Assembly (NCBI GenBank): GCA_014727975.1
Contig: WJMK01000040.1
Location: forward strand, 1 to 61,634
Length of the DNA: 61,634 nt
Reading direction: 5' to 3'
Source of the DNA: Candidatus Micrarchaeota archaeon
GTDB taxonomy: Archaea > Micrarchaeota > Micrarchaeia > Anstonellales > Bilamarchaeaceae
Part shown: positions 20,887 through 46,826 of the stretch, in pieces
Numbering within the stretch: the first letter of the stretch is position 1
How the letters are laid out: each line of letters opens with the position of its first letter
Program-made: the position numbers and the translations under genes
Notes under the pieces: generated by a model
What the model saw: only the letters and a program-made list of their open reading frames with translations
What the model was told of the DNA's origin: nothing
Database searches by the model: none

Positions 20887-20911
20887 TGTGCAAAATAATC
20901 AGGGAAGGGTT

Positions 20912-21274
20912 TTATTCCTTGTGATTCCTGGAAAGCTCGTGGAGGAGGGGAAGGCTCAGGAGCCCAAAGGGAAGGGAGAAGAGTATTGCGAAAACAAGGA
21001 GCTTGCGCGCGTGCTTCCTTCCCACATTAAAGCGGCTGGAGAAAATGCATGTGGCAAGGGAAAAGAGAAGGATTATTGTGAATGCGCCTGTGGGCAGGGC
21101 CAGCCAGAAGCCCTCCAGCTCATAAATCGGGAAAGTTATCAGGAAGCCAAGCGCACCTGTGAAAATAATGTTGAGGGCTGCGGGGATGTATGCTCCCCCA
21201 ATGCGGTCTGTGAGCGCAAGCAGCCGCTTGCCTATGAATGAGCCGCTTGCCTGTTTTACTCTTTTCACCAGCAT
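20912..21274 (-). CDS. Small polytopic membrane protein
   Basis: The start was trimmed to Met51 of the track ORF so that it no longer overlaps the upstream gene. It has 3-4 hydrophobic helices. Confidence 0.4.
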   Translation of the reverse strand: MLVKRVKQASGSFIGKRLLALTDRIGGAYIPAALNIIFTGALGFLITFPIYELEGFWLALPTGAFTIILLFSLATCIFSSRFNVGRKHARKLLVFAILFSLPFGLLSLPLLHELSRNHKE

Positions 21275-21293
21275 CCTGTCTAAATCCAAAAAA

Positions 21294-41525: not shown

Positions 41526-42236
41526 ATGGCGCTTTTTGGTGGAAAGACTGCCCTCATAACCGGGGGAGGAAGGGGAATAGGAAAAGAGATTGCACTAATG
41601 CTTGCAAGGAACGGCGCGGATGTGGCAGTTGCCGCGCGCACAAAAAAGGAGCTGGAGAAAACCGCAAAGGAGATTGAACGGCTGGGGAGGGAATCGCTTG
41701 TTATAAAAACGGACCTCGCAAAGGACAAAGACATAAAGAAGATGTATTCAGGGTTCATGAAGAAATTCGGGAAACTGGACATGCTCTTCAATAATGCAGG
41801 GGTTCTTTTTAGCGGGGAATTTGCAAAAAGCAGCCTCAGGCAGGCAGACATGATGATTGATGTGAATTTCAGGGGTACGGTGCGCTCAACCCACGAGGCC
41901 CTGAAGCACATGAAAAACGGGGGAATAATAATAAATACTGCTTCGGTTGCGGGGCTGAATGCATATCCCACTCTCGCGGTTTATTCTGCAACAAAGTTTG
42001 CAGTGGTTGGCTTTACCCAGGCAGTTGCGCAGGAGGCCCAAGAAAAGGGGATACGTGTTTACTCGGTGTGTCCGGGCGCAACAAAAACAAAAATGTTTGA
42101 CAAGGTTTACCCGGGGCAAAATGCAGAATATACTCCTGGGGAAGTTGCAGAAGAAGTGCTGGAGATGATCAGGAGCAAAACGCTCAAGCCAGGGTCAGCA
42201 GTGGTGGTAAAGCACCACAAAAAGCAGAAAAAGTGA
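41526..42236 (+). CDS. Short-chain dehydrogenase/reductase (FabG-like)
   Basis: TGGGRGIGKEIA, NNAGV and the catalytic YSATKFAV motif. Confidence 0.9.
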   Translation: MALFGGKTALITGGGRGIGKEIALMLARNGADVAVAARTKKELEKTAKEIERLGRESLVIKTDLAKDKDIKKMYSGFMKKFGKLDMLFNNAGVLFSGEFAKSSLRQADMMIDVNFRGTVRSTHEALKHMKNGGIIINTASVAGLNAYPTLAVYSATKFAVVGFTQAVAQEAQEKGIRVYSVCPGATKTKMFDKVYPGQNAEYTPGEVAEEVLEMIRSKTLKPGSAVVVKHHKKQKK

Positions 42237-42239
42237 GAT

Positions 42240-42450
42240 GCACACTCTGGACTCGGTCGGAAATGCATAGAGCAAACCGGTACGAACCTAACCCATCAGT
42301 TTACTTCAAGCACAACCACGCTATTAATCTACATGCCGCGCCCAGGTTTCATATGGTGAGTCGCAGGTCCAGCCACCATATTATTGGCCGTAGCAAGGCA
42401 GAGGTATCAACAACGTACCTTTTTCCAAGGCACCCGAATTGTCCGTGTGC
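42240..42450 (+). ncRNA. Candidate structured RNA, element A (identity unknown; strand inferred)
   Basis: The ends pair as a rod: GCACAC 42240-45/GTGTGC 42445-50, GGAC 42249-52/GTCC 42441-44, TCGG 42253-56/CCGA 42434-37, GGAAA 42259-63/TTTCC 42422-26 and GGTACG 42279-84/CGTACC 42414-19. There is also an internal 8-bp hairpin, ATATGGTG 42351-58/CACCATAT 42374-81. Confidence 0.35.
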
Positions 42451-42524
42451 AAAAATAGTTCATTAAGCAAGGAATAAAAGCACTCCTACAAAAAAATTGG
42501 TTACAGACGTGAAAAACAAGGCAA

Positions 42525-42538
42525 AAAAATATATTTTT
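42525..42538. promoter_or_regulatory. Perfect A/T palindrome (AAAAATATATTTTT), TATA-like, upstream of element B
   Basis: It lies in the middle of a 570-bp gene-free region, about 25 nt upstream of GCATGCAAGAGG (42551). Confidence 0.35.
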
Positions 42539-42552
42539 AGAATTTATTTTGC

Positions 42553-42730
42553 ATGCAAGAGGAAGAAGCACCACACTTTTGACTCGGCAGGAAATGTGCA
42601 CAAGCACATAACCTTGCGGCAGGCAGCAAAGCAGGGGACGGATGTCGCAGGTCCACCTTTTCCGTGCCCATAAGCGCCATGCCCGGAAGCCGCATGCCTC
42701 TCCCAAGCCCAGCCTGCTTAAAAAGCAGGG
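42553..42730 (+). ncRNA. Candidate RNA, element B, sharing motifs with element A
   Basis: It shares CACACTtTtGACTCGGcaGGAAATG (42572-96 against 42241-64), GTCGCAGGTCCA (42644-55 against 42360-71) and ACCTTTTCC. It ends in a 7-bp hairpin, CCTGCTT-aaa-AAGCAGG (42713-29). Confidence 0.25.
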
Positions 42731-42807
42731 GGCAGCAGCCGGATTGCCAGTGCAATAAAAATAATCTCAATATAGGGATTTAAGTGTTGTTACAAAAAAT
42801 TTGGTAG

Positions 42808-43422
42808 TTACTCTGCACTGTTCTGGAACACATAAATAATTCTCTGCAGCACAGTGATTGCTGAAAGTATTACCGCAATTATGATTGCCCCCACAAAATA
42901 ATCCATGGAAATTACTATTCCTGCTGCAAGGCCTGCAGTAATAATCAGGAGGCGCTCGGAGCGCTCAAAAAGCCCTCCCATCTTCTTTGCATTTTTATTT
43001 GTAATGACTCCGTGGTGGTCTGCATATGAGCGCACAAAAGAAGGCATGCATGTCCCAAGGAATACAAGGGAGGCAAGCCAGATTTTTGGGTCTATCATTA
43101 TCTCGGGGAGCGGGTAAAACATGAATGCAAAAAGGAAAAGCGCTTCCATGAGCCTGTCAGAAACCCCGTCCAGGAAGCCCCCGAATTTCGTGGACTCCTT
43201 TCTTGCGCGGGCAACTGCTCCATCAACCATGTCCAGTGCCCCCCCAAGCACAAAAAGCACGAGCCCAAAGGCAAGGTCCTGCATCAATGAGATTGCAAAT
43301 GCGCCCATTACCCCAAGGATCAATGCAAGGACTGTCCAGTGGTTGGGGCGCAGGGGGACAAATGCAAGCATCTGCCCGACCTTTTCCTGGATTCCTTTTG
43401 AAGAAGATTTTTGCTTTAGCAT
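42808..43422 (-). CDS. CDP-alcohol phosphatidyltransferase (archaetidyl-inositol-phosphate/serine synthase-like)
   Basis: D-G-x2-A-R-x8-G-x3-D-x3-D signature: DMVDGAVARARKESTKFGGFLDGVSDRL. Confidence 0.85.
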   Translation of the reverse strand: MLKQKSSSKGIQEKVGQMLAFVPLRPNHWTVLALILGVMGAFAISLMQDLAFGLVLFVLGGALDMVDGAVARARKESTKFGGFLDGVSDRLMEALFLFAFMFYPLPEIMIDPKIWLASLVFLGTCMPSFVRSYADHHGVITNKNAKKMGGLFERSERLLIITAGLAAGIVISMDYFVGAIIIAVILSAITVLQRIIYVFQNSAE

Positions 43423-46428: not shown

Positions 46429-46826
46429 CTTACGCGGGCAGTGAGCTCAGTATATATTATTGCGCCCACCAGCACCAGGGAAAGGGCGCCTGCCAGGAGG
46501 AGGCTGGAAGTCTGGAATATCACAAATAGGATTGCCAGGAAGCTCAGGACATAGATGAAAAAGCGGCCGCTTCCCTTTTGCGCGTGCTTTAGGGGCGCAT
46601 CGATTTCATCCAGGTCGAACTGGAGCTTGTAAAGCTCTGGCTCAGGGACCGAAAAAAGGCTGCCCCTGTACTTGCACTGGGAGCAGACATACGTGCCTTC
46701 AACAGGCTTTATGCTGAGGGAATGGACCTCGTTTTTGCTTTCTATATTGAGGTAATCTCCGGAATGGGGGACAAAGCCGCAATTAGGGCAGAAGATTATT
46801 GCCGCATCTTCGCTTTCCTTCCCCAT
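46425..46826 (-). CDS. Zinc-ribbon protein with two C-terminal TM helices
   Basis: CPNCG...CSQCKYRG, followed by FFIYVLSFLAILFVIF and LLLAGALSLVLVGAIIY. The start was trimmed to an ATG with a TATA-like box about 30 nt upstream. Confidence 0.45.
   Translation of the reverse strand: MGKESEDAAIIFCPNCGFVPHSGDYLNIESKNEVHSLSIKPVEGTYVCSQCKYRGSLFSVPEPELYKLQFDLDEIDAPLKHAQKGSGRFFIYVLSFLAILFVIFQTSSLLLAGALSLVLVGAIIYTELTARVR

Follow-up and report, generated by a model that had tools for sequence, protein, structure and literature searches.

What is encoded in the 571 bp (42237–42807) that separate two convergent protein genes in the 61,634-nucleotide stretch of Candidatus Micrarchaeota DNA analysed here (the window)? 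The window is contig C45 of a 1.07-Mb source genome (G000; 55 contigs, 88% complete). If three open reading frames (ORFs) inside it are disregarded, the gap is bordered by the stop codon of a plus-strand gene for a short-chain dehydrogenase (SDR; PF00106, 41526–42236) and by the stop codon of a minus-strand gene for a CDP-alcohol phosphatidyltransferase (PF01066, 42808–43422). ORF tiling identifies it as the longest non-coding stretch of the window, as the initial annotation had stated, with a runner-up of 407 bp; the next largest stretches without a long ORF are located at 20887–21293 (407 bp) and 46429–46798 (370 bp). The three in-gap ORFs (77–99 aa), which had been judged random-looking, have no Pfam match, and a protein-coding reading of the gap was rejected on that ground. 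The initial annotation had placed two related structured RNAs in the gap, here called element A and element B; overall, its observations are partly confirmed and its interpretation is partly supported by the analysis that follows.

Element A (42237–42452, minus strand) belongs to a family with a patchy distribution. BLAST of the region identified homologues in six of the seven other genomes of the same genus and in three more distant genomes. A covariance model, R1, matches element A with 232.6 bits (E = 2.6e-58; model positions 1–216) over the core of the putative primary transcript, comprising a closing stem (P1), a bulge-helix-bulge site and a structured body. Of the 151 genomes of the order, 47 have an R1 match, nearly always about one full-length copy each, and the conservation in relatives by which the initial annotation had proposed to judge the locus is thereby established. 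The carriers include 40 of 73 genomes of the source family and 6 of 26 genomes of four other families, with none among the 42 genomes of one large family. A second model, R2, finds the RNA in 18 of 151 genomes of a phylum-wide sample, including two of eight genomes in a family of another order of the same class and none in two other large families (0 of 45 and 0 of 25). Since the RNA was not found in 104 of the 151 genomes of the order, including one of the seven of the same genus, it is not essential to the group; part of these absences may reflect model sensitivity or incomplete assembly. A loose pattern scan of genome contigs gave, among the matches listed, mostly chance matches in GC-rich bacteria; of 80 loci fetched from among those matches, the model confirmed four (two from Candidatus Micrarchaeota archaeon and two from Nanoarchaeota archaeon), all in DPANN archaea. 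A viroid-like or Obelisk-like replicon was also considered, and was rejected because 47 of the 151 order genomes carry the RNA gene on chromosomal contigs, and its neighbours are stable in the genus.

Features of sequence and fold indicate that the element A RNA is encoded on the minus strand. Specifically, folding gives z = −3.72 on the minus strand and −1.56 on the plus strand; one pair is G-U in all 28 sequences and several others are G-U in the majority, where the opposite strand would give A-C; a run of at least five U within 40 nt downstream is present at 17 of 33 loci on the RNA strand versus 3 of 33 on the opposite strand; an all-A/U 8-mer is present upstream at 23 of 33 loci on the RNA strand versus 7 of 33 on the opposite strand; and a small ORF that follows the RNA in relatives lies on the same strand as the RNA. 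The initial annotation had instead read two plus-strand RNAs, with B driven by a perfect A/T palindrome (AAAAATATATTTTT, 42525–42538) acting as a TATA box. The palindrome is present, it lies ~30–45 nt before what would be the plus-strand start of B, and Watson-Crick helices can be drawn on either strand; each of the features listed above nevertheless points to the minus strand, and a pair of plus-strand RNAs is scarcely credible. With the RNAs on the minus strand, the palindrome is located downstream of B and so is not a TATA box for B. Its surrounding spacer is conserved across loci of the genus, those lacking B included.

Read on the minus strand, element A is flanked by a putative promoter and a putative archaeal terminator. 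A TATA-like box (TTTTATT, 42473–42479, minus strand) is positioned 22 nt upstream of P1, and two U5 runs (42219–42232, minus strand) are positioned just after P1, overlapping the final codons of the SDR gene that converges on element A. A/T-rich imperfect palindromes of the ACAAAAA..TTTGTA type, conserved in same-genus loci, are located upstream of both elements: one (42487–42505, minus strand) sits just upstream of the TATA-like box of A and is present also in G023, and a second copy (42789–42807, minus strand) sits upstream of B, likewise just before a TATA-like box. They may constitute a regulator site common to A and B.

The consensus structure of element A is a branched four-arm fold around one junction, with a pseudoknot, and not the long rod that had been proposed. 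In particular, the fold comprises the closing stem P1; short helices P2 and P3; a junction with a small hairpin carrying a GAAA-type loop; a long arm (arm 2) that contains two conserved internal loops and ends in an 8-bp hairpin, its 15-nt apical loop starting with invariant CUGGAC; and a third arm capped by GGGUUAAG. An RNAalifold consensus of 10 A-type sequences contains 71 pairs, 38 of them compensated. In the larger alignments of 28 and 31 sequences, which were fitted to the structure of the model and are thus biased toward it, 90.4% of cells form standard pairs on 28 sequences compared with 35–44% when partners are slid by 1–3 columns, 57 of 72 pairs have changed on both sides, and 0 of 500 shuffles attain any of five structure measures, with similar results for the 31-sequence set. 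An alignment of homologous regions, which the initial annotation had suggested as a source of compensatory changes, thus yields them at most pairs of the structure. The small hairpin (helix 5; 42417–42431, minus strand) is 97.3% paired, with three of four pairs compensated (CCUU/AAGG, CCCU/AGGG, UCCU/AGGA), and the apical hairpin of arm 2 (helix 9; 42351–42381, minus strand) is 94.4% paired, with 8 of 11 pairs compensated.

Of six helices listed in the initial annotation, four are part of this covariation-supported structure (GCACAC/GTGTGC, GGAC/GTCC, TCGG/CCGA and the 8-bp hairpin ATATGGTG/CACCATAT) and two are not (GGAAA/TTTCC and GGTACG/CGTACC). On 28 sequences the latter two have 74.2% of cells paired, which does not exceed what shuffles give: 109 of 500 attain the same percentage and 233 of 500 attain the covariation score. 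On the 10 closest sequences the same two helices look better (84.5% paired).

Two contacts go beyond the secondary structure, one supported by covariation and one possible. The first is a pseudoknot between GGGUU in the apical loop of arm 3 (42290–42294, minus strand) and AACCU after the apical hairpin of arm 2 (42344–42348, minus strand). Its five pairs are 96.4% paired, three of them having changed on both sides, and its variants include GGGUU/AACCC, GAGUU/AACUC, GAGCU/AGCUC and AGGUU/AACCU. The second involves the invariant CUGGAC of the arm-2 loop (42367–42372, minus strand), which is complementary to GUCCAG at 42247–42252; at each of the six positions, 25–28 of 28 sequences pair. These hexamers, which are almost without variation, may form a kissing interaction.

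The ends of element A, which the initial annotation had described as closing the rod, instead form a bulge-helix-bulge processing site. In RNA numbering, which starts at 42452, P1 pairs G3–C8 with G208–C213 (6 bp), the 4-bp helix P2 pairs G9–C12 with G201–C204, and P3 pairs U16–G19 with C197–A200 (UCGG/CCGA); the bulges are A205 G206 A207 and, on the other strand, A13 A14 U15. The 5′ half of the site (42438–42450, minus strand) consists of a P1 strand (42445–42450), the helix strand GGAC (42441–42444) and the bulge AAU (42438–42440), with a cut between 42439 and 42438. The 3′ half (42240–42256, minus strand) consists of CCGA of P3 (42253–42256), GUCC (42249–42252), the bulge AGA (42246–42248), with a cut between 42247 and 42246, and the second P1 strand (42240–42245). 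PMC5829648 describes the bulge-helix-bulge motif as a 4-bp helix set between two 3-nt bulges, and the closing stems of element A form a canonical motif of this kind, the predicted substrate of the tRNA-splicing endonuclease. A pattern search recovered this geometry in each of the 34 family members examined, and the P1 stem that flanks it forms in most mini-constructs of family members. The sequence of P1 is free to vary, yet P1 covaries at six of six pairs; the P2 helix is compensated in the B copy (UGGC/GUCA; alignment pair 10–343, UA:1).

Metatranscriptome contigs reveal the product of this site. We compared the region 41900–43100 with Logan contigs of four metatranscriptome runs from two studies; such contigs are assemblies, not raw reads, and carry no information on strand, on ends or on later re-opening of a circle. 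The contigs are 90–95% identical to the window, indicating that they come from close relatives and not from the source strain. They cover 42247–42438 only, with none on the flanks or on element B in the four runs, which is no sign that these are untranscribed, and in all four runs position 42438 is joined back to position 42247 (a path that "goes back 192", with no ambiguity), exactly at both bulges. The contigs are 222, 222, 205 and 209 nt long, and a separate 43-nt contig spans the junction alone; we read 222 nt as 192 + 30, the length that a 31-mer assembler yields from a 192-nt ring. The mature RNA is therefore a covalently closed 192-nt circle (42247–42438, minus strand; U15 to G206, with the junction G206–U15), as shown by the circular junction in contigs of close relatives. 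A tandem repeat in the DNA is argued against by the 34 genomic loci with unique flanks. The transcript that the initial annotation had proposed to look for is thus found for element A, in relatives, in head-to-tail form. In the family, circle lengths range from 189 to 233 nt. On the plus strand opposite the RNA, one frame of 42247–42438 is stop-free right round the 192-nt circle; because few of the circle lengths in relatives are divisible by three, we take this frame to be a chance feature.

The position of the joint and the gene content of the genome point to the splicing machinery. EndA cuts after the second bulge nucleotide. At the G206–U15 joint, both cuts lie after the second nucleotide of a bulge, and the genome encodes EndA domains (PF01974, 77 bits) on C37 and RtcB (PF01139, 574.6 bits) on C26, which we infer to be the enzymes that act on element A. 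The splicing-endonuclease locus (G000:C37:12386–14150; L170–L172) contains a 383-aa frame with two endonuclease-domain matches and, just upstream, a separate 152-aa frame with a third. Circular tRNA and rRNA introns and circular pre-16S and pre-23S rRNA reportedly occur in archaea. Circular EndA products are described in PMC5829648 and PMC7714728, and the archaeal EndA/ligase circles treated in the latter (tRNA and rRNA introns, pre-16S/23S rRNA) share with element A the geometry of the cut site, the junction at the bulges and the enzymes. Those circles, however, arise inside tRNA or rRNA genes, as introns or intermediates, whereas element A appears to be a free-standing gene with the circle as its conserved folded product. 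Rfam and tRNA scans detected no tRNA or rRNA at or beside 42237–42807, and the distance of only ~22 nt from the TATA-like box to P1, together with oligo-U directly after P1, argues against placement within a tRNA or rRNA gene as an intron.

Could the circle be a known RNA in unfamiliar form? Rfam 15 scans, which used the linear DNA sequence, returned only three tRNAs at gathering scores over the whole window and, at a permissive threshold (E ≤ 10) over 42100–42900, four chance-level matches, none of them within A on the minus strand. SRP RNA (95.7 bits), RNase P RNA (92.8 bits) and 5S rRNA are located on contigs C22, C52 and C9, respectively. Known RNA classes (these three and others) were rejected on the basis of their location and the absence of a relevant Rfam match, in agreement with the initial annotation, which had matched neither element by eye to SRP RNA, RNase P RNA, 5S rRNA or a tRNA; the cmscan that it had recommended assigns no family to A or B at gathering score. 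The SRP RNA (G000:C22:9578–9838) is short (261 nt), and its score is just below the Rfam gathering score of 96.5. A hammerhead or C/D reading of the CUGAUGG in arm 3 was set aside because inspection by eye showed that the family does not conserve the motif.

A circularly permuted or very divergent known RNA might be missed by linear covariance models, and such permutation has precedents. The 23S rRNA of Pyrococcus is said to be permuted. In Thermoproteus, a permuted SRP RNA is made functional by circularisation at a site of the same type (Plagens et al. 2015, PMC4731332), so that there, too, the mature form of a non-coding RNA needs bulge-helix-bulge cutting and ligation. The Thermoproteus RNA, as described in that account, is a known RNA with a rearranged gene, whereas element A matches no known family and the SRP RNA of the source genome is separate. 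With SRP, RNase P and 5S RNAs all elsewhere in the genome, and with no partial match on the minus strand within A in the permissive local scan, we consider a disguised known RNA very unlikely.

Comparison with other structured RNAs likewise sets the element A family apart. The RNAs raiA, OLE, ROOL and GOLLD are orphan large structured bacterial RNAs, for some of which kissing contacts have been reported. Like them, element A combines an intricate conserved fold with strong covariation and self-complementary loops; unlike them, it is archaeal, much smaller and circular, and it shows no sequence or model similarity to them in the Rfam scans. Circular omega-RNAs and box C/D sRNAs are described as stable circular small RNAs in archaea (PMC12558985). 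Element A differs from both in that its circularisation site is a canonical bulge-helix-bulge; moreover, its family consensus lacks conserved C/D boxes, and no TnpB or IS element lies beside it. In the literature, searches turned up no report of such a circular or structured RNA from DPANN, Micrarchaeota, Nanoarchaeota or Woesearchaeota.

The biogenesis of the circle is well supported, and we propose the following pathway. An archaeal promoter would drive a short element A transcript that ends at the oligo-U runs, and the ends of this transcript would pair as P1 and, together with the GGAC/GUCC helix and the two 3-nt bulges, create the bulge-helix-bulge site. EndA would cut both bulges, and RtcB would join the excised piece into the 192-nt circle (42247–42438), which would fold as four arms round one junction, locked by the GGGUU/AACCU pseudoknot. 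In the precursor, GUCC would be held in the cut-site helix with the 5′ exon, and excision would free GUCCAG. In the predicted circular fold after ligation, GUCCAG(U) becomes the loop that caps P3, and this loop could kiss the invariant CUGGAC loop of arm 2. Such a kiss would explain why both hexamers are frozen; before excision, the 3′ partner of this putative kissing loop is also base-paired to the 5′ exon. The final fold may thus form only after processing, or the contact may occur between molecules.

The surroundings of the RNA in relatives suggest a protein connected with it. Within the genus, the neighbours of element A are stable; beyond the genus, a survey of ORFs of at least 80 aa, a cut-off that missed a tiny ORF identified later, detected no conserved neighbour gene (best clusters, 6 of 33 loci). 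In distant carriers, an ORF of 38–63 aa begins 17–30 nt after the RNA on the same strand (L042:1745–1933, L037:1757–1927, L038:1749–1913, L043:1390–1509 and L046:1753–1899; and, on the minus strand of their loci, L040:1369–1482, L044:1329–1478 and L100:2348–2467). The encoded protein is very basic and has G-R-x-P-S, K and S-K-V-x-K as its invariant residues. It has no match in Pfam, NCBIfam or PDB, and its 45 database relatives are all unnamed proteins of DPANN MAGs; these tiny basic proteins are a new family. A profile of the eight ORFs has matches in 22 of the 151 order genomes. Each of these 22 belongs to the 47 that carry the RNA, and the ORF was found in none of the 104 genomes negative for the RNA. 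In 20 of the 22 genomes the ORF lies directly behind the RNA (start 12–113 nt after the RNA, same strand); seven of the 22 supplied the profile and are adjacent by construction, and 13 of the other 15 are adjacent. The spacer between RNA and ORF contains a GGUG-type ribosome site. The protein was not found in the source genome by profile, motif and composition search, nor in the genus (0 of 7). This linkage suggests either a protein partner or an ancestral role of the RNA as an intron in a 5′ UTR.

On the second of these readings, the element would chiefly be a bulge-helix-bulge intron within the 5′ UTR of the tiny-protein gene: its excision would mature or regulate the mRNA, the circle would be a by-product, and A and B would be orphan relics in the window, where the protein gene would have been lost. 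The same-strand ORF behind the RNA in 20 of 22 ORF genomes, the presence of the RNA in all 22, and the ribosome site in the spacer accord with such a role, and there is a precedent in Haloferax volcanii, in which HVO_1309 has a 46-nt bulge-helix-bulge intron in its 5′ UTR (Schwarz et al. 2020, PMC7714728). In the 20 related genomes, the RNA is likewise placed where the 5′ UTR of a small ORF would be, and its splicing would follow the same route. The Haloferax intron, however, is short and no conserved fold is reported for it, whereas the element A family measures ~190–230 nt and has four arms and a pseudoknot. In the window, moreover, A is followed by no ORF on its own strand: the two U5 runs come next, and then the SDR gene, which is antisense; in the source genus, the RNA has its own oligo-U terminator and no ORF. 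The RNA is also present in more genomes (47) than the ORF (22), it is within the excised circle that sequence is conserved and tertiary pairs covary, the "exon" stem P1 being free to vary, and the circle is the species that accumulates in the RNA runs. We therefore regard an intron serving the tiny-protein gene as an unlikely account of the element.

As to function, we favour the circle as a ribonucleoprotein scaffold. It would be a stable scaffold that binds protein, with the tiny basic protein as its partner in about half of the carriers, G000 excepted. The way in which loops and tertiary contacts are constrained is more in keeping with a core that binds protein or is catalytic than with a regulator that acts by base pairing.

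Element B (42570–42755, minus strand) is a reduced paralog of A. The model R1, built from A-type sequences alone, matches B with 15.9 bits (E = 0.0087 over the 61.6-kb window), and the two elements have in common a 25-nt repeat with 84% identity (42241–42265 and 42572–42596) and an exact 12-mer, GTCGCAGGTCCA (42360–42371 and 42644–42655), which together bear out the shared motifs noted in the initial annotation. Element B retains P1, an AAA bulge, the UGGC/GUCA helix, the AAU bulge and P3, as well as the small hairpin and an arm with a GACCUGCGAC loop. It has a short hairpin in place of arm 3 and, with arm 3 missing, has no pseudoknot. The hairpin that had been noted near the end of B is present in the sequence. 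Sister B copies were found in two genomes only, both of the same genus (G005, R1 39.4 bits, E = 1.3e-8; and G004). B is probably processed like A, with a predicted circle of 166 nt (42578–42743). The proposal of two paralogous structured RNAs thus holds, with one of them full (A) and the other reduced (B). In other genera, second copies include a reduced 122-nt match ~840 nt from the main copy (G062:C23:11243–11364) and two full-length copies each in G046 (C31, C5), G066 (C41, C5) and G086 (C58, C108); duplication of the RNA gene recurs.

Variable copy number of this kind, with reduced copies (B and the 122-nt match in G062) and paired full copies in G046, G066 and G086, would also be expected of an intron-like insert, selfish or neutral, that makes use of the splicing enzymes without benefit to the cell, and the patchy distribution within the order is compatible with such an insert. 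Element A, however, lies inside no gene, and none of five pattern matches in viral contigs was confirmed by the model; its neighbours are stable in the genus, and its loops and pseudoknot are strongly constrained across families. A selfish or neutral insert is accordingly highly improbable.

Taken together, the evidence makes it probable that element A is a stand-alone minus-strand gene whose conserved product is a 192-nt circle made by EndA and RtcB; B is a shorter tandem paralog. A more specific view of the circle, as the RNA core of a new DPANN-specific machine, is conceivable but speculative; such a machine could unite the circle with the tiny basic protein as a ribonucleoprotein, act as a ribozyme, or be a multimer of RNA alone held by GUCCAG/CUGGAC, its fold would become active only after GUCCAG is freed, and the closed backbone would guard against exonucleases in host-dependent cells.

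To our knowledge, the known products of archaeal splicing endonucleases are introns, rRNA intermediates, one rearranged SRP RNA and two mRNA introns. Element A would depart from all of these as a free-standing gene with a circle as its sole conserved product. Its fold is as elaborate as that of a riboswitch or small ribozyme and matches no described family, and its circle is abundant enough to assemble from sediment metatranscriptomes. The combination of its own putative promoter, a closing stem and a bulge-helix-bulge site is a design that can be searched for across archaea. For the DPANN archaea, whose RNA biology is little known, element A would add a newly defined RNA whose biogenesis can be tested, together with a candidate partner protein and, possibly, a change of fold triggered by processing.
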